From the NCBI GenBank assembly GCA_051715425.1, contig JBPXJS010000011.1, forward strand, positions 132,215 to 196,214: a DNA stretch of 64,000 nt. Reading direction: 5' to 3'. The DNA comes from Bacteroidota bacterium. Its GTDB lineage: Bacteria > Bacteroidota > Bacteroidia > UKL13-3. Positions 10,786-34,120 of the stretch are shown here, piece after piece. The first letter of the stretch is position 1. Every line of letters begins with the position of its first letter. The translations under genes and the position numbers were made by a program. The notes below the pieces were generated by a model. That model ran no database searches. It was given only the letters and a program-made list of their open reading frames with translations, and was not told the DNA's origin.

Positions 10786-11608
10786 CTTCGAACTTCCAAA
10801 CCAATAAAACTCCGGGAAACGCAATATCCTAACTTAACATTTAAAATTTAACATTTAAAACTCAGCATTCAACATTTCAATAACTTCGAACTATTGAACT
10901 TCGAATATCTTAAATAATATGATGTTTTCTTAATTAGAAAGCCCTGAGTCGTTTTGCTCACAGATTTCACAGATTTGCACAGACCCCTTAGCCAAACCCG
11001 GCAAACAGAAAAATAAAACTTCCTAACTTCGAACTACCCAACTTCGAACTTCTTAACTTAACGCAAAGGGCGCAACGGTTTCGCAAGGAACGCAAAGAAA
11101 TATCGGTTGTAAACCAGATTTTCCGCTATGCGCAACTTCCCAACTCAACATTTAAAATTTAACATTCAAAATTTCGAAATCTTCGAACTCCCAAACCAAT
11201 AAGATTCCGGGAAGCGCATCATCCCAACTTAACACTTAAAATTTAACATTTAAAATTCAGCATTCAACATTCAGCATTCAACATTTCAAAAACTTCGAAC
11301 TTCCAAACCAATAAGATTCCGGGAAGCGCAACACCCCAACTTAACATTTAAAATTCAACATTTAAAACTAAAAGATCCGCATTCAGCATTCAACATTTCA
11401 AAATCTTCGAACTTCCAAACCAATAAGATTCCGGGAAGCGCATCATCCCAACTTAACACTTAAAATTTAACATTTAAAATTCAGCATTCAACATTCAACA
11501 TTTCAAAAACTTCGAACTTCCAAACCAATAAGATTCCGGGAAGCGCAATATCCTAACTTAACACTTAAAATTTAACATTCAAAACTCAACATTCAGCATT
11601 CAACATTT
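10786..11608. repeat. 'F' tandem minisatellite (about 105–112-bp unit)
   Basis: Four near-perfect units beginning cttcgaacttccaaaccaataagattccgggaagcgca at 11181, 11293, 11405 and 11510. Degenerate copies from 10786. One inverted copy at 30978–31071. Confidence 0.9.
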
Positions 11609-18548: not shown

Positions 18549-18756
18549 TTTTCTATTTTTTAATTGTTACTAATTTTTTGTCCGTTTTCCTTATTGTGCT
18601 GTGTCGTAGTAGCCTTGCCGCCAACGTCAGACTGTGAAAATACTAAAAAACTAACCCTTTAGAATCGAATATTCGAAAAATCTTCAGATGGGTATCCGAA
18701 TATATCAGCATGGAATTCTAGTTTTTTCACAACCTAACGTTTTGCAGCTACCCGAA

Positions 18757-18870
18757 GGTGGCGATTTCGAAGCACTTCACTGTCAACCAAGCACAAGCTT
18801 TGATAGATGCACAAAGCTTCATTTAACCACTGAACCGCCACTTTTGGGTAGGTGCTGTTATAAGCCGTTT
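18757..18870. repeat. repeat B copy (3'-of-gene module)
   Basis: ggtggcgatttcgaagcac...gcacaaagcttcatttaaccactgaaccgcc. Homologous copies at 22170–22272, 24030–24150, 28001–28125 and 29410–29530. Confidence 0.8.
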
Positions 18871-19830
18871 TTATTTGTTGAATTGTGGGTCGAAATTGTC
18901 ATAAAAATGAGAGCAAATGCCAGATTTGTTTATGATTTTAAGAACTTTCATCATTCTAACATGATGGTCATGGTCGTGGTCATGTTGTCCAAGAGTCATT
19001 TCTTTTTCTGCGTCAACCGACAGAATTGAATGCAACGAATGTGGTGCTGGATGTCCTGGCATATCTCCAAGCCATTTTCCAATCCATTGAATTTCACCAA
19101 CAACATTATTTGCTACTTTCCAATCTTCAATTCTGTCGTCTACCCATCCGTGTAATTTCCAAAAAGTCGGATGAACATGGCTTGAATATGTGTCACCAAG
19201 CCAGTCATAATTTGGGTCGTCCCATTTAGGGTCAATGTTTGTTGAAAATTCGTCTGGGTCAGGTCTGATTTCGTCTATCTGTGAACAAAATCTCATATGC
19301 AACCAGTTGTGAATTGTAAATTCTAGTCTAGCACCCAATTCGCCTAATGACACCGTCTTCAAATAGCCTTTGTCGGTAAATTGAGTTTCTAACGGTTTAA
19401 TCCTTTGATTATAAAAGTCATCTGATTTTACATTTCTCAAATAATCATTTAAACCTTGGTCACCTGTTTCCCAAGTTGGAGGAACAGGATATTCACTATC
19501 ATTAGGAGTAGGAATTGATTTCCATCCTTCAACTTTTGGATAGGTTGCATCTCCAATTTCTCGAAGTCTTTGATTAACACTTGCAATCATAACTCTGTGC
19601 ATATATAAAAAATCTTCCCCCGAGTTGTTAGATACATCTAGTTGTCTCGGATTTGAGTTTCTTACATAAGCAGGTCTTGGCGGCTCCCAACCTAGCTGTC
19701 TAATTTGATTTCTTTCACTGTCGGAATATAGCCACCAGCTATTTCTTACTTGATGCCATAGGTAGTGATGAAGTCTGTGGTCGTGTGACGCCATCATCGT
19801 AATAATATGTCTTGGTAATTTGTTGCTCAT
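18871..19830 (-). CDS. hypothetical His/Trp-rich protein
   Basis: 319 aa with HDHRLHHYLWH and HDHDHDHH motifs. 25 bp downstream of the Fic gene. Confidence 0.55.
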   Translation of the reverse strand: MSNKLPRHIITMMASHDHRLHHYLWHQVRNSWWLYSDSERNQIRQLGWEPPRPAYVRNSNPRQLDVSNNSGEDFLYMHRVMIASVNQRLREIGDATYPKVEGWKSIPTPNDSEYPVPPTWETGDQGLNDYLRNVKSDDFYNQRIKPLETQFTDKGYLKTVSLGELGARLEFTIHNWLHMRFCSQIDEIRPDPDEFSTNIDPKWDDPNYDWLGDTYSSHVHPTFWKLHGWVDDRIEDWKVANNVVGEIQWIGKWLGDMPGHPAPHSLHSILSVDAEKEMTLGQHDHDHDHHVRMMKVLKIINKSGICSHFYDNFDPQFNK

Positions 19831-19854
19831 ATTCTTCTGATTTTTGTAGATTTT

Positions 19855-20955
19855 TTATTCCCTGATAAGTGCTGTGAAAATGTCATTAAGGCTTTTTCCA
19901 TTTCCTTGTCGTGCAGTTTGTAATGCTTTGTAGTATTCTATTCGTTCAATTTTTTCAAATGTAACGTCTTTGTCAAGCAAGTCTTTAAATTGAATTGAAG
20001 CTAAAACTCTTGCTATTCTTCCGTTGCCGTCTAAGAATGGATGTATTGTTAAAAACTTCTCGTGAAATGTTGCAATTGCAGTTATTTTATTGTCATCCGA
20101 ACCATAAGCTACCTTCATAAATTCATTTCTCCACCATTCTAATAATTCAAAAGTTAAAGAAGGAACGTCTGCTGGTGATACTGGAACAAAGTCTGCACTT
20201 TCCTTTTCTTGACCAGGACTACCAATCCAAACATCTAATTTTCTAAAGCCTAAGAGACTATGATATTCTTGCCCTTGGGTTTCCATTAAAATTGTCTTGT
20301 GAAGAACAAGGAGGTCTTCAATTGATAGTCTAGATGAAAATTTCACACCCGCAATAGGTAACGAGGATAATTTAGAATAACCAAAGTCACGCGAATAAAT
20401 TTGTCCTGCGAGCTTATTTGTTACCTTGTTTAATTCTGCAAGTGCATTTTTAATTTCATCGAAGTTTTGCTTTAAGTCGAGATGAGAACTTAAAAAAGAT
20501 ATTTGTTCTGCTTTATTTAGTTCAATACCTAAATATTCTAGTCTTACACCATAGCCTTTGGGGCTGTCAAGAATACCACAAACACTTTCTCCGTGTAGGA
20601 TTACTGTTTTGAATGTTCTATTTTGACAAAGAGTGATTCTTTCACCGGGCGTAATTTTTTGATTTGTAACAAAAACGAAACCTTGAGCATTATTTTTAGT
20701 CACGCCCAAAATGTCTCTTTCAAATTTTTCTTGAATGTCTTTAAACTCCTTTTGTCCATTTGGGAAATAACAGCCAACAACAAATTTTTCTCCTTCTTTA
20801 TAACAGATAATATCTTTTGTTCCATCAGGTCCACCCACAGGACTTTGAGGGTCAATTTCTTGGTAACCTTCAATTCCAATTACTTTAGCAGCCATTCTTT
20901 CCGCAAATGCCTGTCCTTTGTCCCAGTTGATTAATATTTGATATGTATTTGTCAT
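19855..20955 (-). CDS. Fic/DOC family protein
   Basis: Canonical Fic motif HPFLDGNGRIAR in the C-terminal half. ~200-aa N-terminal extension. Confidence 0.85.
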   Translation of the reverse strand: MTNTYQILINWDKGQAFAERMAAKVIGIEGYQEIDPQSPVGGPDGTKDIICYKEGEKFVVGCYFPNGQKEFKDIQEKFERDILGVTKNNAQGFVFVTNQKITPGERITLCQNRTFKTVILHGESVCGILDSPKGYGVRLEYLGIELNKAEQISFLSSHLDLKQNFDEIKNALAELNKVTNKLAGQIYSRDFGYSKLSSLPIAGVKFSSRLSIEDLLVLHKTILMETQGQEYHSLLGFRKLDVWIGSPGQEKESADFVPVSPADVPSLTFELLEWWRNEFMKVAYGSDDNKITAIATFHEKFLTIHPFLDGNGRIARVLASIQFKDLLDKDVTFEKIERIEYYKALQTARQGNGKSLNDIFTALIRE

Positions 20956-21208
20956 TAGTTACGGTGTCTCTTTAAAATGGCTTATAACTCATAAATATAC
21001 GCAATGCACAATTTAGTATTCGCACAAATTCAGTAAGTTATCTATTGCGCTTTTTTAATATTTATTTTCCTTCACAAACGTGTATAAACATTTATACCCG
21101 TTTATACCCATTTGAACACGTGTACACCTCCACGACCTTCCCTAACCTCCTCATCAAAATCAAAAGAGCGAAATACTCTATTTTCGTGGTATGGTATAGG
21201 AATTATAT

Positions 21209-21799: not shown

Positions 21800-22100
21800 A
21801 CCTACCACAAACCTCCCCAACCTTCCCATCAAAATCAAGAGTGAAAACACTCTTTTTTCATAGGGAAAACATTCTTTTTTTTGGAAGTGCCTAACGGGTG
21901 TTTGGCGGCTGTAAGTATTGTATTTATTAGCAAATAGGGCAAAATGGAGGCAAATGGCCAATTTTTTTTCCGAAACCCCTGTTTTAGTTTGTGAAAGGGG
22001 AGAAAGGGTTTGCTAAGGTGAAAATTGGAAGAAAATTTGGTGGTGCTTTTAAGGAGATTTGGGAGCATAAAATGATCTGTTTATATGTCGGTATTTGAGG
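21800..22100. repeat. repeat A copy 1 (~300-bp 5'-of-gene module)
   Basis: acaaacctccccaacc(c/t)tcccatcaaaatcaagagtgaaaacactcttttttcataggg...ggcaaaatgg...gtgaaaggggaga... Contains hairpin aagagtg-aaaa-cactctt followed by a T-run. Other copies at 27680–27990 and 30735–30895 (truncated), plus a degenerate copy at 21120–21200. Confidence 0.85.
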
Positions 22101-22169
22101 TCAAAGCTTACGCGGATGATATGTCTTTAGGTACGACTTTAAACTATTTGGATAGTTGCAATGAGAGAA

Positions 22170-22272
22170 ACTTACAAGCACTGTACTTTATACGAAGCAC
22201 AAATGTTCATTTAATCACTGAACCGCCAATTTCTTGTAAGTTCAGTTAGCTGCTGTGGTTCTATCTCGTGTC
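22170..22272. repeat. repeat B copy
   Basis: ...tacgaagcacaaatgttcatttaatcactgaaccgcc...agctgctgtggttc. Directly 3' of the stop of gene 22276–23994. Confidence 0.8.
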
Positions 22273-22275
22273 ATT

Positions 22276-23994
22276 TTATGCGTCAATTTCTTCATCTGTT
22301 TCTATTGTTACTGGGTCAATTTGCAGTTGATGTTGTTCCCATTCAAGTTGTTTTTGCTTGTCGTTTGAGATAGCTTGTTCAATAGCTAAACTTTCTCTGT
22401 AATGTCGTGCCTCTGCCACCATTGTCCACTTTGCGTTAATGTTCATACTCTCTACTTCCGCTTTAATGTCTGCAAGTGTTACTTTGAAAAATTCTTTTCG
22501 CGGGTTTACTTTATTCATTTGTAGTCGCAGGAATTTCTTGTGTAATTCTCTTTCAAGTCCTGGAGCATTGTCGCTAAATATCATTGAATGGACATCAAAC
22601 TCAAATGGAACGCTCGCATCTCCTAATTCTTTCACTCTGTCAAGAGGTTCAAGTCGTCTTGTCATTCCGATTTTATAAACGTTTTCCCCGAAAGAACCAA
22701 TGTTAGAAATAATATAAACGTTTCCAGATTTTGTCTGTTGTGCCATTGATATTGCTCGTTGATTTTTGTCTTCCGCAATTTTTAATTTTCCTTCAAGTTC
22801 TCTTAATTTTTCTTCGTATTTAGATTTTTGGTCTTCGCTTGCTTGTGCTACTTCTTTTTGAACTTTTTCAATCAGTTTCTTTAAAGTTTCTTCTTCTTTT
22901 TGAGCTTCTTTTATTGCTCTTTCAAAATCTCTTCGGGCTTTTTCTTCTTCTCTGATTTGTTCTTTTATTCTTCTTTGTTCTTCTTGTTCTTCCCATTTTA
23001 ATTCTTGGGCAATAACAGCCCATTTCAATTCGTCTATTCTTGCGTTTAAATATTCTTGTGTTATGATTGCATTACGAAACGCTTTACCATTATTGTTTAC
23101 AACTTGGTAAGCATCTTTAATTTTTTGTTCTAATGTTCCGTAATTGTCTTTTTTTACTTTTGAAAGTATGGAGTCAACTTTACCATTAAATGCGTCAAGG
23201 ATAAAATTGATTGCAGTTTCTTTTCGATTTGCTTCTACATAATCACATTTGGCAGATGTCCCGTTTTTAATCATTAAACGAGTTTTTTCTCTTGAAAATT
23301 TTAATTTTTCTCCTGCTTCCGTATGTCTAAATTCTTCTGCTAAATCGTCAAGTAGACTGTAAGTTGGGATTAAGTATCTGTCGCCATAACCCTCAATAAT
23401 ATTCTTCATTGCCTTTGCAGTTTTTTCTAGTTCAGTTGCATTTTGCATTGCTTTGTATGCATCACCTGCAATTTCTTGTGCTTTCTTGTCTGCTCGTTCA
23501 ATAATTAGTTTAGCTTCTTTCGTAGCATTGTCTAATTGTGCAACTGCATTTTGTTTAAATGCAGTTGCATCAATATTTGCTTGTGTCTTAATTGTATTTG
23601 CTGAAATAGAAGCTTGGTCAAGTTCTTTCTGTGCTTGCAATTTTAGTTCATTGGCTTCTGAAGTTGCAGTGTCGAGTTGTTGTTTAGCGTTATCAATAAT
23701 TGAGTTTGCATTTTTTTCTGCATCTGAAAGAATTTCCTTTGCTTTCAGTTCTGTGTCAACAATACCTTGATATTTATTTAATGCTGCATTTTTTTGTTCA
23801 AGGTCTGAAACTTGCCCAATTAGAACAATACTATTTTGTTTTAGGTCTGTAAGTTGGTCGGATAAATTTTTTCTTTCCTTTTCATTAAAAGCCAAACTGT
23901 TTGTCAAGTCGTTAATAATAGTTTGTAGTTTCTTGCGGTTTGTAAGCCAAAGAATAGCTAAAATGATTATTACTATAATTAAAATTGCAGTCAT
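22276..23994 (-). CDS. DUF4041 domain protein with C-terminal T5orf172 (GIY-YIG-like) domain
   Basis: 572 aa. N-terminal TM helix, long coiled-coil, then GNVYIISNIGSFGENVYKIGMTRRLEPLDRVKELGDASVPFEFDVH, characteristic of T5orf172/MUG113. Confidence 0.75.
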   Translation of the reverse strand: MTAILIIVIIILAILWLTNRKKLQTIINDLTNSLAFNEKERKNLSDQLTDLKQNSIVLIGQVSDLEQKNAALNKYQGIVDTELKAKEILSDAEKNANSIIDNAKQQLDTATSEANELKLQAQKELDQASISANTIKTQANIDATAFKQNAVAQLDNATKEAKLIIERADKKAQEIAGDAYKAMQNATELEKTAKAMKNIIEGYGDRYLIPTYSLLDDLAEEFRHTEAGEKLKFSREKTRLMIKNGTSAKCDYVEANRKETAINFILDAFNGKVDSILSKVKKDNYGTLEQKIKDAYQVVNNNGKAFRNAIITQEYLNARIDELKWAVIAQELKWEEQEEQRRIKEQIREEEKARRDFERAIKEAQKEEETLKKLIEKVQKEVAQASEDQKSKYEEKLRELEGKLKIAEDKNQRAISMAQQTKSGNVYIISNIGSFGENVYKIGMTRRLEPLDRVKELGDASVPFEFDVHSMIFSDNAPGLERELHKKFLRLQMNKVNPRKEFFKVTLADIKAEVESMNINAKWTMVAEARHYRESLAIEQAISNDKQKQLEWEQHQLQIDPVTIETDEEIDA

Positions 23995-24029
23995 ATTCTG
24001 AGATGTTTCGTTATGTTTCCTGTTGAGTT

Positions 24030-24150
24030 TTGCAGTCTGCTACTATGCAACTTTTATTTTAATGAGGTGGTGATTTCGGAACGCCATACTTGATACGAAG
24101 TAAAATGCTCATTTAAACACTGCACTGGCTATTTCTTCTGTCTATAAGAT
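24030..24150. repeat. repeat B copy
   Basis: ggtgatttcggaacgccatacttgatacgaagtaaaatgctcatttaaacactgcactggc. Confidence 0.75.
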
Positions 24151-24163
24151 TTTGAGTTGTAAT

Positions 24164-25180
24164 TTACACTGTTAGGTTTATTTTGTGCCGTTTCCCGTTT
24201 AGTAAAAAGTCAATTTGTATTTTGTTGTGAAGTATAATTTCAAGATGTCCAAAGTCAAACTCTTTATGATGATTTGGACAAAGTAAAATTATGTTCTCAG
24301 GTGTTTCTCGTCCTTTTAAGTATTTGGCTTTTATGTGTGCAGCTTCAATATACTTGCTTCCGTTTTTTTTCATTATTGTAGTAGAACAAATTTGGCATTT
24401 AAAGTCCCGGAGAATTTTTATTTGTGTTATTGTTTTGTTGTCGCGTTTATATCTTTTGTGATTGACAATAATTTCTTCAGGGTCGTTGTCCTTTAGATTC
24501 TTTAGGTCTTTTAGAATGTCTGCCTTTGATTTATTCTTTTTGAAGTATATTTCAAGTTCGATTTGTTCCTTTTCGTCATTTGAAACAAAGGTCAATTGAA
24601 ACTTTTTACCTGTATAGTATTCATAAATAGATAAAAGTTTCTTAAAATCTATTTCGTTTGTTCCAACTTTCGATAATTCAGTTAATTCGTCAAAAAGTAT
24701 ATGTTCAGCGAATTTATCATCTTTATAGGTGAAACCAATTTGCCCAACCATTCTTTCACTTGAATTGTCTTTGTAATTGTTCGCGTCAAGTGGTAAAGGA
24801 AATAAAATTGAAAAATCCCTTTCGGCCTTGATGTTTGCCCAATAAGCATTCTTTTGAAATGCAGTCGGAAGTTTTCTTGCTTCATTAAACGTTTCCGCTT
24901 TGCCATATACTCCAACAATTTGTCCTTTGTTTTCGTCAGTGTTCCTTGTGTAAAATATTATGAGTCCGCCCTTTTCGAATTTCACTGGAGCATTTTTCCA
25001 TTTAACGAAACCGTTTATAAACTTTTCGGTGTCAACTGCTTTTTTGTTGAAGTTGAAATTTAATGATTCACCACCAACATTGTCTTGAGCGTATTTATGC
25101 CCTGCTTTAGGATTTATATAGCTGTTGTTTCTCCAACCAAATGGATTCCAAGTAATGTTTGCGATTATTATTTTACTCAT
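24164..25180 (-). CDS. HNH endonuclease with N-terminal PUA/EVE-like domain (putative modification-dependent restriction enzyme)
   Basis: C-terminal HNH (CQIC...AHIKAK...LLCPNHHKEFDFGH). N-terminal beta-barrel-like signature GGLIIFYTRN...GQIVGVYGKAE resembling EVE/PUA. Confidence 0.6.
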   Translation of the reverse strand: MSKIIIANITWNPFGWRNNSYINPKAGHKYAQDNVGGESLNFNFNKKAVDTEKFINGFVKWKNAPVKFEKGGLIIFYTRNTDENKGQIVGVYGKAETFNEARKLPTAFQKNAYWANIKAERDFSILFPLPLDANNYKDNSSERMVGQIGFTYKDDKFAEHILFDELTELSKVGTNEIDFKKLLSIYEYYTGKKFQLTFVSNDEKEQIELEIYFKKNKSKADILKDLKNLKDNDPEEIIVNHKRYKRDNKTITQIKILRDFKCQICSTTIMKKNGSKYIEAAHIKAKYLKGRETPENIILLCPNHHKEFDFGHLEIILHNKIQIDFLLNGKRHKINLTV

Positions 25181-25184
25181 TTCG

Positions 25185-26378
25185 TTAATTTTGTGTTGCT
25201 ACAATAGTTAATGTTGTTCGCTGGAGTTTTGCCAAATCGTTCATTGTTTGAGTAAATACTGTACGTGCATGTTCATAATTGTAGTTACACAACAAAAGAA
25301 TAACGGGACCTTTTCCTTGCCATATCTCAGAGTACTGTGAAACCTGTCCTTTTGCTCGTTGAATTGCTCCCGCACTTGAATCTCTTTTCATCTCTATCAA
25401 AATGGTGTCATTCACTACAATATCTGCTCGTCCTCTGCCTGCCTTATCAGCAATAGGGTACTCTAATTCAATTGATGCACCTGGCAAATGCTTTTTCAAA
25501 TGGCGGTATAACCTGTCTTGATACTCGTACTCGTAGTATGCTCCTTTGGGATGCCAATTTTGTAAAGCAATCACAAAGTCATTAAAGAGGTTTGAATTGC
25601 TTTTTGCAATAACAGCACTTACTTGTTCCTCTTGTTTTGCATTAATGACTAATTCACTTTCCACTTGAGTTTGGATAGTTGCAGCTTGGTTAGTGTATTT
25701 TGAATCCGCTTTATTTTTATAATCAAAAAGTTGTCGCAGTTCTGATTTGATTCGTATAAATATCTGTTGATCTCTTTTGTAGAGATAAAATAAGATTGCT
25801 ACACCAAACAGAATAGCAACCCAGTAGTAGTGGTTTGTAAATCTTTCGAACTCACGGAAAGATGAAAGTCGTATGTTGAACAAATTTTCAATCGGCTTGC
25901 GAACAAAAACAGATAAATTTTGAAACGCTTTCCAACTGATACCACCAACAAATAAAACTCGTCCAATTTTGTAGATGTTCTCATTTTGTCCGTTTTTCTT
26001 GGTTACTTCAATTTCATCTTTCATTATTTCGTAGTAAGTTAATAATCTAGATTTTGCTCTTTCCCAAGTCCAGTTGCCTTTGTCGTCACGCCATGAACCT
26101 ATAAAAGCAAGAACAATTACTAAGGTGAAAAGGAGAAAGATTAATGTTGAATAGTAGGTCAGTCGATCAGAGTCAACACCGAGTAGCTCGTCAAGAAGCG
26201 GTGCAATTATTAAAACCCATACGCTACCCCAAATAGAAAATTTTATACGTTTGCCATAAAGTTTACGATCTATGTTATCAACTGTATCAAATAGTTTAGT
26301 AACGGCAGTCTGAGTCTGCACTAAGGTTAAGTTTAAATAATCTTTAGCCCCTTTTTGTTGTTCGGTCATATTGTCCAT
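25185..26378 (-). CDS. membrane-anchored protein with C-terminal PD-(D/E)xK (Mrr-like) nuclease domain
   Basis: 397 aa with 3–4 TM helices in the N-terminal half. C-terminal ...RADIVVNDTILIEMKRD... (D...E-x-K). Ends 5 bp before the EVE–HNH gene. Confidence 0.5.
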   Translation of the reverse strand: MDNMTEQQKGAKDYLNLTLVQTQTAVTKLFDTVDNIDRKLYGKRIKFSIWGSVWVLIIAPLLDELLGVDSDRLTYYSTLIFLLFTLVIVLAFIGSWRDDKGNWTWERAKSRLLTYYEIMKDEIEVTKKNGQNENIYKIGRVLFVGGISWKAFQNLSVFVRKPIENLFNIRLSSFREFERFTNHYYWVAILFGVAILFYLYKRDQQIFIRIKSELRQLFDYKNKADSKYTNQAATIQTQVESELVINAKQEEQVSAVIAKSNSNLFNDFVIALQNWHPKGAYYEYEYQDRLYRHLKKHLPGASIELEYPIADKAGRGRADIVVNDTILIEMKRDSSAGAIQRAKGQVSQYSEIWQGKGPVILLLCNYNYEHARTVFTQTMNDLAKLQRTTLTIVATQN

Positions 26379-26552
26379 TTTAAAATTGTTTATTTGAGCT
26401 TGTTGTATGATGTAAGCACAGCAGTCAATGCTTTCATTATAGCTTGAGGTCTTTCAACACTGAAGTTTTGTTTATAATGGTTTGCCTGAAAGGCGCTGAC
26501 CCAGCTGTAGCGAATTACTTCCTTAAGATGGTTTACATTGCTCAGTCATTTG

Positions 26553-27581
26553 TCAGCCAGTTATTTTTTTTAACTCGTCCACCAATAGTTTACTTTCCAT
26601 TTTAGATAGATAAGGTGTCTTTAAGGTTCTTGCCCAAAAGAATCCGTGCTCCAATAATTCTGTCACTTTGTAGAATGGCAGATAGTTTGTAATTCCATTT
26701 TCTTTGCTTGGGGGTTTTGTAAGCCATTTAACACTAACAAAACCTTCGTCATCGTCTAAGTCCTCATTGTATTCTTCTTTAGTATTAGTGAGCACTTCAC
26801 CTGCAGCGATAATTCCATGATGTTTATGAGAAAGGAAAACAATGTCCCCCTTTTTTAAATAGTAAGCAAAGTATGCTTGTCCTCCATAGGCTGAAGCTCT
26901 TTTTTTATTAAGCATATCCCATACACAGTCTTCGTTGTAAGTTCTATTTGTATCTAGGATTACGCCTTTTTGTTGGTTTGGATTAATGTGTGTATCGTGA
27001 GGTTTCGCGAAGAATTCAAAGTATAATTCATTACCAAGACTATAAATCCTATAAGGAATGAACTCAACTGAAAGTCCTTTAGTTTTCCAATATGTCAAAG
27101 ATTTTGCTAACGTCTCGTTAGCGGCACTTCCAACAACATAAAGATGTTGGTTTCTGTTAAACTCTGCTGGAGTTAATGCCCTGTCAAGTTGGAAGTCCTC
27201 TTTGTGAGCATCCAAAAGCTCCTTTTCAGGATTTTGTTTTTTGAAATAGTAATTTAATTTGTCATAACCCCATTGCCCAGCGGTTTGTGTATAACGTAAA
27301 ATTTGAACCATAGCATCGTCACCAACTACACCACGCTTTAATTCAAAAATTACAAGGTCTCCCTTTTCTGTAACTGCATAGATGTCCGCTTCGCCTTGAA
27401 AACTTCTTTCTTGGTGGATTGGCATTAATGCGTTGTCTTCGAAAAGTTTATTCAATAAATTATTAGCAAGTAGATTTTCTAGATCCTTTTCGATTTTGCT
27501 TAACTGGGAAAAGTCGTAAAACGGCAGTGGCTCCAGCCCGTTAGGGGTATTGTTGTTTTCAAGTGATAATTTGTATAGCAT
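26553..27581 (-). CDS. PD-(D/E)xK nuclease fused to C-terminal EVE domain (putative type IV restriction endonuclease)
   Basis: N-terminal GEADIYAV...GDLVIFELKRG (D...ExK). C-terminal KKGDIVFLSHKHHGIIAAGEV matches the EVE GDLVFFYHS...GIVGIAEV core. Confidence 0.6.
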   Translation of the reverse strand: MLYKLSLENNNTPNGLEPLPFYDFSQLSKIEKDLENLLANNLLNKLFEDNALMPIHQERSFQGEADIYAVTEKGDLVIFELKRGVVGDDAMVQILRYTQTAGQWGYDKLNYYFKKQNPEKELLDAHKEDFQLDRALTPAEFNRNQHLYVVGSAANETLAKSLTYWKTKGLSVEFIPYRIYSLGNELYFEFFAKPHDTHINPNQQKGVILDTNRTYNEDCVWDMLNKKRASAYGGQAYFAYYLKKGDIVFLSHKHHGIIAAGEVLTNTKEEYNEDLDDDEGFVSVKWLTKPPSKENGITNYLPFYKVTELLEHGFFWARTLKTPYLSKMESKLLVDELKKITG

Positions 27582-27679
27582 AGTGTTTTTGTCTTTAAGT
27601 TGCTAAAAACTAGTTATATATTCTCCACATATACACCTTTCCTTTATCCGCCTGCATAGATTTACATCAGGATCCAGTT

Positions 27680-27990
27680 ACCTCCACAAACCTCCCCAAC
27701 CCTCCCATCAAAATCAAGAGTGAAAACACTCTTTTTTCATAGGGAAAACATTCTCTTTTTTGGAGTGCCTAACGGGCGTTTGGCGGCTGTAAGCCATGTA
27801 TTTATTAGCAAATAGGGCAAAATGGTGGTAAATGGCCAATTTTTTTTCTGAAACCCCGGTTTTAGTTTGTGAAAGGGGAGAATGGGTTTGTTAAGGTGAA
27901 AATTAGAGGAAAATATGGTGGTGCTTTTAAGGGATCAGGGAGCATAAAAGATCTGTTTATATGCCGGTATTAGTTGTCAGAGCTCAACGT
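27680..27990. repeat. repeat A copy 2
   Basis: About 88–90% identical to 21800–22100 by inspection. Immediately upstream (5') of gene 26553–27581. Confidence 0.85.
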
Positions 27991-28000
27991 TTCTGGGGTT

Positions 28001-28125
28001 TAATAAGTTGGCAATTTCGGAGACAAAAACTGTCTGCCAGTAATAGACTTGATACTAAGCACAAAGCTTCATTTAAGTACTGAGCCCGCTTTTTTGCCTA
28101 ACCCGTGTTAGCTGCTTGTGCTTCT
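28001..28125. repeat. repeat B copy
   Basis: ggcaatttcggagacaaaaactgtctgccag...ctaagcacaaagcttcatttaagtactgagcccgc...agctgcttgtgcttctgtc. Confidence 0.8.
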
Positions 28126-29335: not shown

Positions 29336-29409
29336 TTTATTATTTGTTTAAATAGTTTTTATGAGGTTTGATAGCATAGCAGCTAACGGTTTGCAACTAC
29401 AAGAAGTTG

Positions 29410-29530
29410 GTGATTCCGGAGCACAAAACTGTCTACCAGCACCAAGCTTGTTACGAAGTACAATACTTCATTTAACCACTGACCCGTGAATTTCTTGTAG
29501 GTGCTTTTAGCTGTAGTGCTTCTTCTCATT
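29410..29530. repeat. repeat B copy
   Basis: ggtgattccggagcacaaaactgtctaccag...ttacGAAGTAcaaTACTTCatttaaccactgacccgtg...agctgtagtgcttcttctc. Confidence 0.8.
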
Positions 29531-29929: not shown

Positions 29930-30544
29930 TTATCTTATTTTTCGTTTGTGATTAGTTCCTGTCAACTTGCTTAATTTTGATATGGATGTTTCCAAATGCT
30001 TTTTTAGGATTCTTTTTAGTTCTTTTATTTCTTCAATGTCATTCACATTATTAAGTGATATTATTTCATCAAAATTTATTCCGTGTCTATATGTCCTCGC
30101 TGAAATTGGACCTTGTATTAAAAAGAGGAATTGACAATATGGAAAAATGGTTTTTATCATTTCTGCTTTTTGAGAATAGGTCAGAATTTCATGTGTGTTA
30201 GGCTGTCCTTTTTTAACTTCAAGTATTACAAATGGAAGTCCAACATGGTGTGAATTTTGTCCACTATCTTTTTCGAGTATTACATCAATAATTGTGTGTT
30301 CTTCTTTAGAAATTCGGCTGTCTTTTTGCTTTACTGTTTTGTCAAATAGAACTTTATAAATAGTAATATCTTGTTTGAAACACCATAATTCAAGTTTTGT
30401 GTTATTGTCTGTCGGGATATAGATGTGTTTGTAGGGAACCGGAACCTCCGTGCCAATTTGATACGGAAATTTTACAACGTCTTTAAGTTGCTCAATTAGT
30501 CTATCTCTAAGTTCTGTTTCTGTCAAATGTTGTGTTGTCGTCAT
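29930..30544 (-). CDS. hypothetical protein with PD-(D/E)xK-like motif
   Basis: 204 aa. ...HHVGLPFVILEVKKGQ... resembles a restriction-endonuclease-fold E-x-K motif. Confidence 0.45.
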   Translation of the reverse strand: MTTTQHLTETELRDRLIEQLKDVVKFPYQIGTEVPVPYKHIYIPTDNNTKLELWCFKQDITIYKVLFDKTVKQKDSRISKEEHTIIDVILEKDSGQNSHHVGLPFVILEVKKGQPNTHEILTYSQKAEMIKTIFPYCQFLFLIQGPISARTYRHGINFDEIISLNNVNDIEEIKELKRILKKHLETSISKLSKLTGTNHKRKIR

Positions 30545-30734: not shown

Positions 30735-30895
30735 TTGCAAACACAATACAAACCTCCCCAACCCTCCCATCAAAATCAAGAGTGAAAACACTCTTTTTTC
30801 ATAGGGAAAACATTCTTTTTTTTTACAGAGCCTAACAAGCGTTTGATGGCTGTAAGCATTGATTTTATTAGAAAGCAGGGCAAAATGGGAGCAAA
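30735..30895. repeat. repeat A copy 3 (truncated)
   Basis: The first ~160 bp match the other copies (caaacctccccaaccctcccatcaaaatcaagagtgaaaacactc...) and then diverge. Confidence 0.8.
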
Positions 30896-31099: not shown

Positions 31100-31560
31100 C
31101 GCCTCAACCTTTGCGTCTTATGCGTCTCTGCGAGAGTCATTGCCTGTTCCGCAACGCAAGAGTCAAGGCTCGCTTGTCCATTGCAGGCGTTAATATCTTA
31201 AACAAAATTCGTGAATACAATTTGTGGAAATTTCATGCCTTCGGCTTGACAGGCGCGGCTTGGTTTGGTCATTGGTCATTGCCTGTCTCGCTATTGCGGG
31301 AGTCATTAGTCAATGCCTGCTTTGCTATTGCTGGAATCATTTTAAAATAAATCTGTGGCTAACCCGCGCAAGTCTTCTCAAAAAATCATCTGTGGAATCT
31401 CATGCCTTCGGCTTGACGCGTGTGGCTTGATTTGGTCATTTGTCAATGGGCATTGGTCATTGGACAATGGTTAATGATTAGTTTTTCTCGCAAGTCTTCT
31501 CAATAAATAAATTCGTGTTCATTTCATGCCTGCGGCTTGACAGGCGTGGCTTATTAGTGG
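31100..31560. repeat. cluster of inverted 'E' repeat units (right island boundary)
   Basis: Three units of gcaagtcttctcaa...aattcgtg...atttcatgcct(g/t)cggcttgacaggcg(t/c)ggc. 31140–31270 is a near-exact reverse complement of 10620–10750. Confidence 0.85.
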
Positions 31561-31596
31561 GTATTACCTAAGCACTGTGCACCACGCACTAAGCAC

Positions 31597-32142
31597 TCAT
31601 TTAACAGTAGTGGAGTCTTTCTTTTTGAAGTCGAGGGAGAGGGAGTTTACGCAGTAGCGGAGTCCGGTTTTATCTTGTGGGCCATCGTTGAATACGTGTC
31701 CGAGGTGGCCTCCGCATTTGGTGCATGTAATTTCTATGCGGGTCATGCCGTGGCTGTTGTCCATTTTTTCGGTGATTTTGGTTTTATCCAGGGCTTCATA
31801 AAAACTGGGCCATCCACATCCTGCATCAAACTTGGTGGCCGATTGAAACAACTCATTACCACAGCCTGCACAGGTATAAACACCCGGTTCCCAGTGGTCT
31901 TCAAACTTACCGGTAAAGGGACGTTCTGTTCCTTTCTCGCGTAATACGGCATATTGTTCTGGTGTGAGTTGTTTTTTCCAGTCGTCTTCGCTTTTTACTA
32001 TTTCAAATTCAGCCATGGTATCAGTTTTTAATGAGTTTGGTGTTTTTGCTGTTTCCGCTGGCTGATTTGATTTGCAGCCAGTATAAGCCAGGGTGCAGAT
32101 GCCCAAGGCCAGTAATAATAATTTCGTTTTTAGTTGTTTCAT
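31597..32142 (-). CDS. msrB: peptide-methionine (R)-S-oxide reductase MsrB
   Basis: Two CxxC zinc motifs, the catalytic Cys and the GTERPF/HLGHVF signatures. The ORF-track start encodes a lipoprotein-like signal peptide but overlaps the upstream gene by 122 bp. The alternative ATG at 32016 (MAEFEIV...) would give a cytoplasmic form. Confidence 0.85.
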   Translation of the reverse strand: MKQLKTKLLLLALGICTLAYTGCKSNQPAETAKTPNSLKTDTMAEFEIVKSEDDWKKQLTPEQYAVLREKGTERPFTGKFEDHWEPGVYTCAGCGNELFQSATKFDAGCGWPSFYEALDKTKITEKMDNSHGMTRIEITCTKCGGHLGHVFNDGPQDKTGLRYCVNSLSLDFKKKDSTTVK

Positions 32143-34120
32143 ATTCGTATTGTTTTAGCAACACTTTTCCGCTCATATCATAAAGGGTAATCTCCAGCGG
32201 TTGGGTTTGTGTGCTGAAAGATATACGCAGGTTATTGCTAAACGGATTTGGGGAAAGCTGAAAAATGTCTTCAGGCAAATGTCCAATGCCGGTATTGGTG
32301 CTAATGGTTTCTGTATCGCTGAAACTAAAAGCCCCGTCAACATCCAACTGTTTAATGCGGTAATATAAAGTGCCTGAAAGGTTGGGATTGTTTTTTAATG
32401 TATCATCCGAAAACACATACTGCTTAGGGGTATTGCTGTTTCCTGCACCGGCTACTTCACCAACTTTTTCAAAGTTCAGTTGGTTTACGCTGCGTTCAAT
32501 ATCAAAATGGTGGTTGTTTAATTCGCTTGCAGTTTGCCATTGTAAGGTGATCTGCTTATCCAATTCTTTGGTGGCCGTAAACCCCATCCACTCCACAGGC
32601 AGGGTAGAAGAGTTGCTGCTTAAGGCTCCGGTGGTTTGATAATTGGAGGTAGAGTACCATCCGTTGTATTCATAAACAGTGATGGTATAATTTACACCCA
32701 TGGTAAGTCCGGTAACAGTTACCGTGCTTCCGGAACCATTGTAGATCACGTAATTTCCTGCTCCTGTTTGAGAGCCGCTGCCAAAAACGGTATTGGCAAT
32801 ATAACGTGTACTGTCGGCAGGAGGAACTGCGGTGGTAGTGGATGCCCTCATTACCACCAATCTGTTGGAACCATTGCCACTTGCCCAGTTGATTTGCATA
32901 GAGGTATTGGTTTTATTGCTAAAGCTTAATGAAATGGCGCTTACAGTTGGTTCGGCAGGAATTGCTCCTCCCCATATTTTTTTAACAAACTGAGGGCTGT
33001 CAATAAAAGGGTTTCTGTTGTTTTGCAAAGCATAAATGGCATTGTTTCGTTTAATCTCTTTATCGCTTACCGGATCAAGATTATGCCAGGTGATAAGCAG
33101 GTTTAAAAACCATGCATCGTAAGCCGGAAAGGTGGTGCCATCAAGTACATTATCAGCAGTGGCATTGGGTTGCCAGGAAGCAATTACATTATCGTATCGG
33201 GTAGCCATATATAACTGTGCCCTTGCCACATCGCCTTTATATTCATCAACCGGTTCAAATACGGTTCCTGTATATGATCCGCTGGTATTAGGTCCGCGTT
33301 TGCCACCAATGGAAGAAGTCCAGTTGGGAGTGGAAACAGTGCCATACGGTAAATCCCCTCTCTGGCCATTTACATATTTATCTGTAGCAAAAACATGGTG
33401 CATATCGGAAACCATAGGTGAGCTGGATCCGAACCAGCTTTGAGGAAAAGAATGTTCGCGGTTGTATTTCTGGCCTTCGGAAGAGCCACCGGAACCATTG
33501 TCCTGATCGGTAACCAAGGTAAACTCGTAAGGCGATGCTGTTTCAAAACGGGTGGAATAGATATCCCATACTTTTCCGTTTGGTTGAATATCGGTGGTGG
33601 CAAATGCATTCCATACACCGGGCGTATAACCCTGTGCTGAATGTCCGGTAATTTTATTGTACAAGGCTGTTTTTAAACTTGCGCCTGTTCCTGTTGCCGT
33701 GTTATAATAATTAGATGGGGAGGTGGGAATGGCCCAGTTTATTCCCGTGCCGCTTACGGCTATGTTTTGTGAAGTTGATCCTGTGCTGCTGTTTACCACA
33801 TTGCTGCTAAAGCTGCCGGTGGCCGATGGACTGAAACGGATATAAACCGTGGTGGTGGTAATATTACCGGAAACAGGAACAAGGGTAACAGATGAAGAAT
33901 AACGTTGTTTGTATTCAAGAGAAACTTCAAATCCGTTTGGTGCGGTAATCAACAGGTTGGCTGTAAGTGCTGTGGCAGAAACAGTATAACGTTGTGCCGT
34001 AGAGCTATGAAAAGGATAGCAGTTGCCAAACGAAGATATACTGCCTGAACCGATGGTAATGGTTCCACCAATACAGGTATGGGAGATGGCTGATAAAAGG
34101 AGTAATATGATAATACGCAT
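32021..34120 (-). CDS. secreted endonuclease I-family nuclease with T9SS C-terminal sorting domain
   Basis: Signal peptide. Endonuclease_1 signature (KYNREHSFPQSWF...DMHHVFATD). Ig/Fn3-like region and a C-terminal Por-secretion tail (...LYWLQIKSASGNSKNTKLIKN). Confidence 0.7.
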   Translation of the reverse strand: MRIIILLLLSAISHTCIGGTITIGSGSISSFGNCYPFHSSTAQRYTVSATALTANLLITAPNGFEVSLEYKQRYSSSVTLVPVSGNITTTTVYIRFSPSATGSFSSNVVNSSTGSTSQNIAVSGTGINWAIPTSPSNYYNTATGTGASLKTALYNKITGHSAQGYTPGVWNAFATTDIQPNGKVWDIYSTRFETASPYEFTLVTDQDNGSGGSSEGQKYNREHSFPQSWFGSSSPMVSDMHHVFATDKYVNGQRGDLPYGTVSTPNWTSSIGGKRGPNTSGSYTGTVFEPVDEYKGDVARAQLYMATRYDNVIASWQPNATADNVLDGTTFPAYDAWFLNLLITWHNLDPVSDKEIKRNNAIYALQNNRNPFIDSPQFVKKIWGGAIPAEPTVSAISLSFSNKTNTSMQINWASGNGSNRLVVMRASTTTAVPPADSTRYIANTVFGSGSQTGAGNYVIYNGSGSTVTVTGLTMGVNYTITVYEYNGWYSTSNYQTTGALSSNSSTLPVEWMGFTATKELDKQITLQWQTASELNNHHFDIERSVNQLNFEKVGEVAGAGNSNTPKQYVFSDDTLKNNPNLSGTLYYRIKQLDVDGAFSFSDTETISTNTGIGHLPEDIFQLSPNPFSNNLRISFSTQTQPLEITLYDMSGKVLLKQYEYETTKNEIIITGLGHLHPGLYWLQIKSASGNSKNTKLIKN

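Follow-up and report, generated by a model that had tools for sequence, protein, structure and literature searches.

In a chromosomal stretch of 64,000 nucleotides (nt) from a Bacteroidota bacterium (contig JBPXJS010000011.1 of assembly GCA_051715425.1, positions 132,215 to 196,214; the whole stretch is called the window below), two genes for predicted nucleases, here named A and B, follow each other closely on the minus strand. We found that A and B are probably two autonomous single-gene nuclease cassettes that have become neighbours in a decaying integron-type array within a defence island, and not the parts of one system. As a unit the A-B "system" is not real; its two members are new families of known kinds. 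The genes and their junction are as follows.

25185..26378, minus strand: gene A, 397 aa, polytopic membrane domain and C-terminal PD-(D/E)xK nuclease (open reading frame, ORF)
24164..25180, minus strand: gene B, 338 aa, PUA-like reader, helical linker and HNH domain (ORF)
25181..25184, minus strand: A-B junction cgaa, 4 nt, without a recombination site (sequence; attC-like search)

Both ORFs are real and lie where an initial annotation of the sequence had placed them, and the motifs that it quoted are present. The gap between the genes, given there as 5 bp, is 4 nt: the stop codon of A (TAA, 25187-25185) is followed by cgaa (25184-25181) and then by the ATG of B at 25180.

Genes A and B do not travel together

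Loci of both families were collected, and linkage was tested by profile searches over all six frames of the fetched sequences. For B, 79 genomic loci were fetched, 32 of them full-length, from Bacteroidota, Chlorobiota, Chloroflexota, Spirochaetota, Candidate Phyla Radiation (CPR) bacteria and archaea. The 28 A loci comprised 23 metagenomic loci and five places around A homologues on long contigs. Results showed that an A-family ORF was present in none of the 39 loci with a full B homologue (27 with at least 1.3 kb of upstream sequence), and a B-family ORF in none of the 28 A loci (18 with at least 1.1 kb downstream). The genes were unpaired even in the closest relatives, namely a B homologue of 90% identity in Rhodonellum psychrophilum (locus L001) and an A homologue of 83% identity (L080). 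B at 90% identity also occurred in several metagenomes; at these loci, that of R. psychrophilum included, the upstream gene was a VbhA/Fic pair or something else. A homologues stood alone among unrelated genes or had variable neighbours. DNA similarity of the window to the stand-alone B loci was confined to 25182/25192-24132, and that to the stand-alone A locus L080 was confined to 26433-25184. The sole repeat of the A-B pair was found in L103, a 5.9-kb metagenome contig that is 100% identical to the window. The two families also differ in size (683 versus 121 matches in word-indexed searches).

A conserved two-gene system would be adjacent and co-oriented across genomes, and this arrangement was not found. 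The initial annotation had proposed a coupled two-gene defence module and had itself named co-occurrence elsewhere as a test; at the loci examined here the proposal fails that test.

Elsewhere each gene is carried by its own integron-type cassette

The attC-like sites have bulged stems and escaped a scan for near-perfect palindromes. A profile search recovered 57 copies of a ~145-nt attC-like element in the fetched sequences. All copies have the orientation of the genes, and they often form arrays in which single genes alternate with copies (six copies in L081, four in L001). Copies border A in L081 and L082, and they border B in L001, L104 and L105. The element is also found in several intergenic regions of the window and in L033, L034, L038 and L039, and the family marks arrays in Rhodonellum, Pedobacter, Flavobacterium, Sphingobacteriaceae and Cytophagaceae.

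In an alignment of 34 copies the TAAC and GTTA cores were invariant; the element further has an unpaired spacer that is asymmetric, a stem of 17 bp interrupted by single-base bulges, and a variable loop. Compensatory changes were found at 15 of the 17 stem pairs. Standard pairs made up 93.4% of the stem cells, compared with 69.3% after shuffling (none of 500 shuffles reached the observed value) and 27-45% with slid partners, and the covariation score of the stem was 0.554 versus 0.148 for shuffled alignments. The A and B cassettes elsewhere carry sites with the attC organization, R''(..AAC)-L''...L'-R'(GTT..), including the conserved structure and the bulges.

Excision and insertion by crossover at G|TT is a signature of integron cassettes. 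This signature was present here: the 5' end of a cassette (TTNNNNNN) is complementary to its own 3' R''. The six nt after the 5' GTT were fully complementary to the six nt before the AAC of the cassette's own 3' element in 19 of 22 cassettes, among them those of A (L081, L082) and B (L001, L104, L105), compared with 6 of 20 in the same-element control and 11% under random pairing. Because of the matched attC-like sites and the crossover signature, A and B are each an integron-type single-gene cassette in these loci.

Two minor observations concern these arrays. A 53-aa tyrosine recombinase fragment (L001 1705-1863, Rhodonellum psychrophilum DSM 17998) lies at the edge of the cassette array and could be a remnant of the array integrase. 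Small ORFs of 55-66 aa that come right after B homologues (L104 2078-2245; L108 1162-1362) lie inside the attC-like element and are probably annotation artefacts.

The array in the window has decayed around A and B

The attC-like elements around A and B, and the two genes that adjoin them, are listed from high to low coordinates.

29375-29527: intact attC-like element
27986..28123, minus strand: intact attC-like element upstream of the four-gene block, R' GTTGAGC (nhmmer E 2e-27)
26553..27581, minus strand: upstream neighbour, PDC-S11-like candidate defence protein with a NucS-like PD-(D/E)xK N-terminal domain (PADLOC PDC-S11 E 3.8e-20)
24075..24138, minus strand: attC-like remnant between B and the next gene, central part, R'' and R' cores missing (nhmmer E 9.5e-5, model positions 34-98 of ~157)
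22276..23994, minus strand: downstream neighbour, full-length PD-Lambda-1/SNIPE-type membrane-bound nuclease (PADLOC PD-Lambda-1 E 7e-114)
22169..22264, minus strand: truncated attC-like element just past the PD-Lambda-1 stop, 5' two-thirds, R'' GCAGCTAAC (nhmmer E 4e-15, model positions 6-105)
18733-18876: intact attC-like element

No attC-like element was detected between A and B, even at E <= 50, and neither gene has a functional attC on each side in the window. At the position of the upstream GTTAGCGG core of L080-L084 the window carries unrelated sequence, the 174 nt between the PDC-S11-like gene and A contain no attC-like element, and a search for an R'' (GAGCTCAAC) matching the cassette that starts after 27986 found none. 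A and B are only 4 nt apart because the ~220 nt normally found between cassettes are missing here. The lost segment would comprise a 3' tail, the ~145-nt attC-like site and a 5' leader. In this strain A and B are probably co-transcribed, with neither needing the other.

As an integron integrase was not detected in the window, the array can be no more than a cluster of attC sites lacking an integron integrase (CALIN; PMC8618304). We conclude that the window holds a decaying CALIN-like array, in which four former cassettes (PDC-S11-like, A, B and PD-Lambda-1/SNIPE) now form one fixed block. The locus resembles integron cassettes and CALINs in its co-oriented genes, its imperfect-palindrome AAC/GTT sites with bulged stems, its cassette-specific boundary complementarity, and its cargo, which is rich in small defence genes as reported for Vibrio (bioRxiv 10.1101/2024.07.02.601686). 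It differs in its host, a Bacteroidota and not a Vibrio, in the decay of several sites and in the lack of a complete integron, as the 64 kb of the window yielded no intI, attI or Pc.

In contrast to A-B, the same array does contain a genuine two-gene cassette (18871-20955), which is composed of a SoFic-like Fic protein (PADLOC SoFic E 3e-21) and a 319-aa ORF without a Pfam match. Its ends match perfectly, with GTTATAAGCC at 20988-20979 and the complement GGCTTATAAC at 18866-18857.

A second repeat, of ~300-370 nt, comes directly after attC-like sites, where the next unit has its 5' start (27680-27985 and 21801-22170), with further partial copies at 30742-30895 (and 21126-21166). It holds a terminator-like hairpin, AAGAGTG-TTTC-CACTCTT (27716-27733 and 21837-21854), and a spurious-looking 77-aa ORF; it may represent either a cassette without an ORF or a module of promoter and terminator. 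A 53-nt repeat (AATTTCATGCCTTCGGCTTGACAGGCG...) is present in three copies at 31229-31572, in a ~1 kb non-coding stretch between the island and msrB; this region is the expected place of attI and the integrase in a complete array. A scan of 21.5-28.3 kb for terminators and for promoters, the latter with a sigma-70 model poorly suited to Bacteroidota, performed no better than on shuffled sequence.

Gene B is a candidate stand-alone type IV restriction enzyme

B is composed of two domains joined by a helical linker.

24722..25180, minus strand: PUA-superfamily (EVE/ASCH/YTH-like) beta-barrel domain of B, residues 1-~153 (predicted structure)
24176..24475, minus strand: HNH (beta-beta-alpha-metal) domain of B, residues ~236-335, with a CxxC...CxxH zinc site, H282, N296 and H305 (profiles)

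The HNH domain was recognized by Pfam HNH_2 (residues 262-313, E 5e-9) and, below the model cutoff, by NCBIfam PT-DNA_restrict, a family of phosphorothioate-dependent restriction (residues 239-330, E 5e-13). A profile of the B family matched TagI (4e-9) and EcoKMcrA (2e-8) through this domain, and these were the sole solved relatives found by sequence. C262, C265, H282, N296, C301, N303, H304 and H305 are invariant in 33 homologues with identities down to 50%, so that the HNH domain has its catalytic residues and zinc ligands intact. Zorya ZorE was rejected as a label for B: its match spans the HNH domain only, and no ZorAB genes were seen.

The AlphaFold model of B (mean predicted local distance difference test score, pLDDT, 87.1) shows a beta-barrel, a ~70-residue helical linker and the HNH domain. 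In this model the N-terminal barrel has a PUA-superfamily fold of the EVE/SRA/YTH/ASCH kind, and the loop at residues 11-40 is strongly conserved with low model confidence. Comparison of the predicted reader domain with known structures gave the following values.

PH1033 (EVE): 8.9
2ar1: 8.0
ASCH: 7.8
TagI: 7.7
YTH domains: 7.5-6.0
VcaM4I: 7.5
THYN1 with 5-methylcytosine (5mC) DNA: 6.9
McrB N-terminal domains: 6.0-5.8

By sequence, residues 1-230 gave no profile match, and Pfam EVE (PF01878), ASCH, PUA, SRA and YTH were all absent from B at E <= 0.1. The PUA/EVE-like barrel and the HNH domain read from the sequence by the initial annotation are both upheld, the former by predicted structure and the latter by profile, but no EVE, ASCH or PUA profile recognizes the barrel. 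The reader domain of B is a new sequence family fused to HNH, unrecognized by current profiles. With the N-terminal 170 aa alone as query, a word-indexed search returned only 12 proteins; most of them were short or partial (99-284 aa), and none revealed a new fusion partner.

The combination of a PUA-like reader with HNH is known from characterised modification-dependent restriction enzymes that consist of one chain (PMC6765204; PMC7897488), and the likeness to type IV restriction that the initial annotation had noted is well founded in this respect. The closest known kind is the group of PUA-superfamily-HNH modification-dependent enzymes, VcaM4I/TspA15I (EVE-HNH) and TagI; EcoKMcrA and ScoMcrA are more distant. 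No cognate methyltransferase lies beside B, the neighbours being the PDC-S11-like gene, A and PD-Lambda-1, and those ORFs of the island that were profiled contained no methyltransferase domain, as in type IV systems. By analogy with these enzymes, B is a candidate stand-alone type IV modification-dependent restriction enzyme. Its PUA-like domain would read a modified DNA base, probably flipped into a pocket, and its HNH domain would cut near that base, as in VcaM4I and TagI, with no methyltransferase partner needed.

Two further observations were made on B homologues. Many Bacteroidota and archaeal genomes (L033-L079) encode the linker and HNH half (residues ~170-338; 41-71% identity) after other, shorter N-terminal domains, which suggests that reader domains are swapped on a common nuclease module. 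Some homologues of 413-495 aa (P0012, P0091, P0117 and P0118) have an extra N-terminal region, which in one of them has weak HARE-HTH/winged-helix matches.

Gene A belongs to a superfamily of polytopic membrane nucleases

A is divided into a membrane region and a nuclease domain.

25773..26249, minus strand: membrane region of A, residues ~44-202, ~4 helices (hydropathy and AlphaFold model)
25197..25649, minus strand: PD-(D/E)xK nuclease domain of A, residues ~244-394, putative catalytic E283, D319, E329 and K331

Hydropathy analysis identified strong segments at ~47-66 and 74-95 and weaker ones at ~136-155 and 183-202, and the AlphaFold model (pLDDT 84.0) placed helices at residues 44-66, 69-94, 131-167 and 172-202. 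Conserved motifs flank these helices, FFDxxDxIDRKLYG ahead of the first transmembrane (TM) helix and WRDDxGNWTW past the second; D34, D37, Y41, G42, P60, R97, D98, G101 and W103 are invariant or near-invariant in homologues. The distribution of K and R residues (positive-inside rule) suggests an N-in/C-in topology. In the model the C-terminal ~150 residues are arranged as alpha-beta-beta-beta-alpha-beta, with D319 in strand 2 and E329-x-K331 in strand 3, which is the core fold and active-site placement of the PD-(D/E)xK superfamily. E283, E306, D319, E329, K331 and Q345 are invariant across 34 homologues with identities down to 31%.

The initial annotation had assigned 3-4 TM helices and a PD-(D/E)xK core to A, and both agree with these data. 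Its description of the core as Mrr-like found no support, as Mrr_cat did not match A at E <= 0.1 in Pfam. Pfam matches were sub-threshold only (HSDR_N_2, E 0.0036; PDDEXK_3, E 0.031; MmeI_N), PADLOC returned no family at E <= 0.1, and the RmuC, DUF4263 and DUF4041+T5orf172 domains of Pfam were absent. PDC-S64 of PADLOC had a weak N-terminal match (E 0.0036) in one of ten distant A relatives. With no profile match, membership of A in the Mrr-like, Shedu (SduA) or Shield (ShdA) groups was rejected. A Foldseek search of the PDB with the A model gave nothing at E <= 0.001; among PDB chains, sequence and profile searches gave a spurious match to AcrIIA4 (E 0.05) and nothing else.

An exhaustive HMMER scan with the nuclease domain alone recovered 282 representative clusters. 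At least two hydrophobic segments were present in 101 of the 104 listed representatives of at least 300 aa, and they sit just N-terminal of the nuclease where domain positions were compared; longer members add zinc-ribbon-like N-terminal regions. Given these 282 clusters and the hydrophobic segments in 101 of 104 representatives, the union of membrane and nuclease domains is old and conserved, not an accident of this locus. These results place A in a large superfamily, so far uncharacterised, of polytopic membrane PD-(D/E)xK nucleases. Some A homologues of 610-655 aa (P0150, P0154, P0170, P0186 and others; L086, L092) carry an extra ~230-aa N-terminal region, which opens with a signal-peptide-like segment.

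Three known defence proteins resemble A in part. Epona, a cassette of the Vibrio cholerae chromosomal integron, combines an Mrr_cat nuclease with a holin-like domain of two TM helices, and its protection against phage has been demonstrated (bioRxiv 10.1101/2024.07.02.601686). Compared with Epona by description, A is likewise one protein with a TM region and a PD-(D/E)xK-superfamily domain on an integron-type cassette, but it has ~4 helices with conserved motifs instead of a 2-TM holin-like domain and lacks an Mrr_cat match. ShdA of Shield has an N-terminal membrane anchor and an RmuC-type PD-(D/E)xK nuclease and is sufficient alone for defence; its membrane attachment was proposed to restrain a genotoxic nuclease (PMC10270631). 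A is also a membrane-bound PD-(D/E)xK-superfamily nuclease, but it matches neither RmuC (PF02646) nor PADLOC ShdA and has a polytopic conserved domain where ShdA has a single anchor helix. SNIPE is an inner-membrane nuclease of GIY-YIG type that cuts phage DNA during injection (PMC13190303). A shares with SNIPE/PD-Lambda-1 the concept of keeping a nuclease at the inner membrane, where it can cut only DNA that is entering, but its nuclease is PD-(D/E)xK and not T5orf172/GIY-YIG, and it has no DUF4041 and no coiled coil; the true SNIPE/PD-Lambda-1 homologue is the window gene at 22276-23994, next but one to A.

Because of its likeness to Epona, ShdA and SNIPE, a role of A at the membrane is proposed by analogy. 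A would be a polytopic inner-membrane protein that keeps a cytoplasmic PD-(D/E)xK nuclease at the membrane, an assignment less certain than the function proposed for B. As a defence of a single protein it may cut incoming DNA where the DNA enters, or it may be switched on or released by envelope perturbation or stress, and the ~4-TM domain with its own conserved motifs may position or gate the nuclease of this family at the site of DNA entry.

Alternative explanations for the A-B locus

Several points weigh against reading A and B as two autonomous nuclease cassettes. The functions of both genes are predictions from sequence, and A is covered by no Pfam, NCBIfam or PADLOC family. Certain A homologues adjoin housekeeping genes rather than defence genes. 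No integrase was found in the window, either as a Phage_integrase domain in the profiled ORFs or as a tyrosine-recombinase motif in any frame. Lastly, the precise 4-nt junction could have been selected for co-expression, which leaves room for strain-specific cooperation.

Such cooperation is the alternative that survives best, although we consider it unlikely. It holds that the attC site was deleted recently and the junction kept for synergistic co-expression, as a layered defence in which each gene still works alone. The junction is unusually clean (stop, 4 nt, start), and four nuclease genes at 22169-27986 have lost their functional sites and form a single block with a copy of the same terminator-like hairpin on either side. 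Against this, loss of attC is expected by drift where no integrase is present, the adjacent junctions have decayed too without acquiring tight spacing, and a single lineage gives no evidence of selection.

A second alternative, which is decidedly improbable, is that neither gene serves defence: B would be a mobile HNH homing or repair nuclease, and A a nuclease for DNA uptake or processing, or a cassette-borne toxin. Integron cassettes carry many functions, and the missing PADLOC match of A and the housekeeping neighbours of some of its homologues are compatible with this reading. Neither gene was found in any phage of the phage collection, where B matched through its HNH domain only; A was also absent from the plasmid collection, in which B had a single near-full-length match (22% identical). 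However, the HNH domain of B is closest to TagI, EcoKMcrA, phosphorothioate-dependent McrA-type and SRA-HNH proteins and not to homing enzymes, and it is fused to the fold of a modified-base reader. The immediate neighbours in the window belong to PADLOC defence families (PDC-S11, PD-Lambda-1 and SoFic), and other A loci adjoin ORFs that resemble, by eye from their translations, DNA methyltransferases, type I restriction (HsdR), Cas9 and AAA/OLD proteins.

Least probable of all is an obligate two-gene defence, in which a membrane-tethered nuclease, as effector or abortive-infection partner, would act with a modified-base-reading HNH nuclease: co-transcription is likely from the 4-nt same-strand spacing without terminator or recombination site, both genes encode nucleases within a defence-rich block, and the independent assembly L103 has the same junction, but the pair is absent from 39 B loci and 28 A loci, each gene is bounded elsewhere by its own matched recombination sites, the family sizes differ, and both architectures are known to work singly.

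The reading of A and B as autonomous cassettes calls for no new system, because PUA-HNH enzymes and membrane-bound nucleases are each known as self-sufficient. Single-protein defences of one or the other type have been described (PMC6765204, PMC7897488, PMC10270631, PMC13190303, bioRxiv 10.1101/2024.07.02.601686).

Implications for the search for defence genes

Genes packed tightly inside a defence island do not necessarily form a system; between A and B the short gap is the scar left when cassettes fused. Enzymes like B would escape screens that look for type IV enzymes by their domains, because no profile recognizes the reader domain. The A superfamily fits an emerging class of defences that tell self from non-self by location at the membrane. 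The attC family of Bacteroidota offers a handle for mining cassette arrays for compact defence genes; together with the arrays in this phylum that are laden with defence genes, it broadens a concept that was established in Vibrio (bioRxiv 10.1101/2024.07.02.601686). More speculative, and somewhat doubtful when its parts are taken together, is the proposal that family A is a widespread, uncatalogued single-gene antiphage defence spread as an integron-type cassette, and that the attC arrays of Bacteroidota are stores of small defence genes based on nucleases, a role demonstrated until now mainly in Vibrio.

Surroundings of the locus

The island is low in guanine-cytosine (GC) content (~32-38%, versus 40-45% outside), and all sizeable ORFs from 11.6 to 30.5 kb of the window are on the minus strand. 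Type IX secretion sorting domains occur among the genes that flank it, and the nearest relatives of the cassettes are in Rhodonellum psychrophilum; both features suggest a Bacteroidota host, probably from the Cyclobacteriaceae.

Residues 26-100 of the PDC-S11-like protein match NCBIfam NucS (E 1.8e-8, below the model cutoff). Its C-terminal half has, by eye, a PUA/ASCH-like strand pattern (GDIVFLSHKHHGIIAAGEV); profile comparison of this protein with B, the reader domain included, detected no relation. The PD-Lambda-1 homologue has an N-terminal hydrophobic segment, DUF4041 and a T5orf172/GIY-YIG domain (Pfam DUF4041, T5orf172 and MUG113).

Three other features were noted in and around the island. 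A 204-aa protein with a weak HSDR_N (PD-(D/E)xK) match, at 29930-30544 on the minus strand, sits in a different unit of the island, and a secreted Endonuclease I of 699 aa (32021-34120, minus strand), which carries a type IX secretion sorting domain, lies just outside. At the low-coordinate edge, beside a GNAT acetyltransferase gene, a repeat of 105-112 nt is present in four tandem copies that are 76-87% identical (11122-11607).

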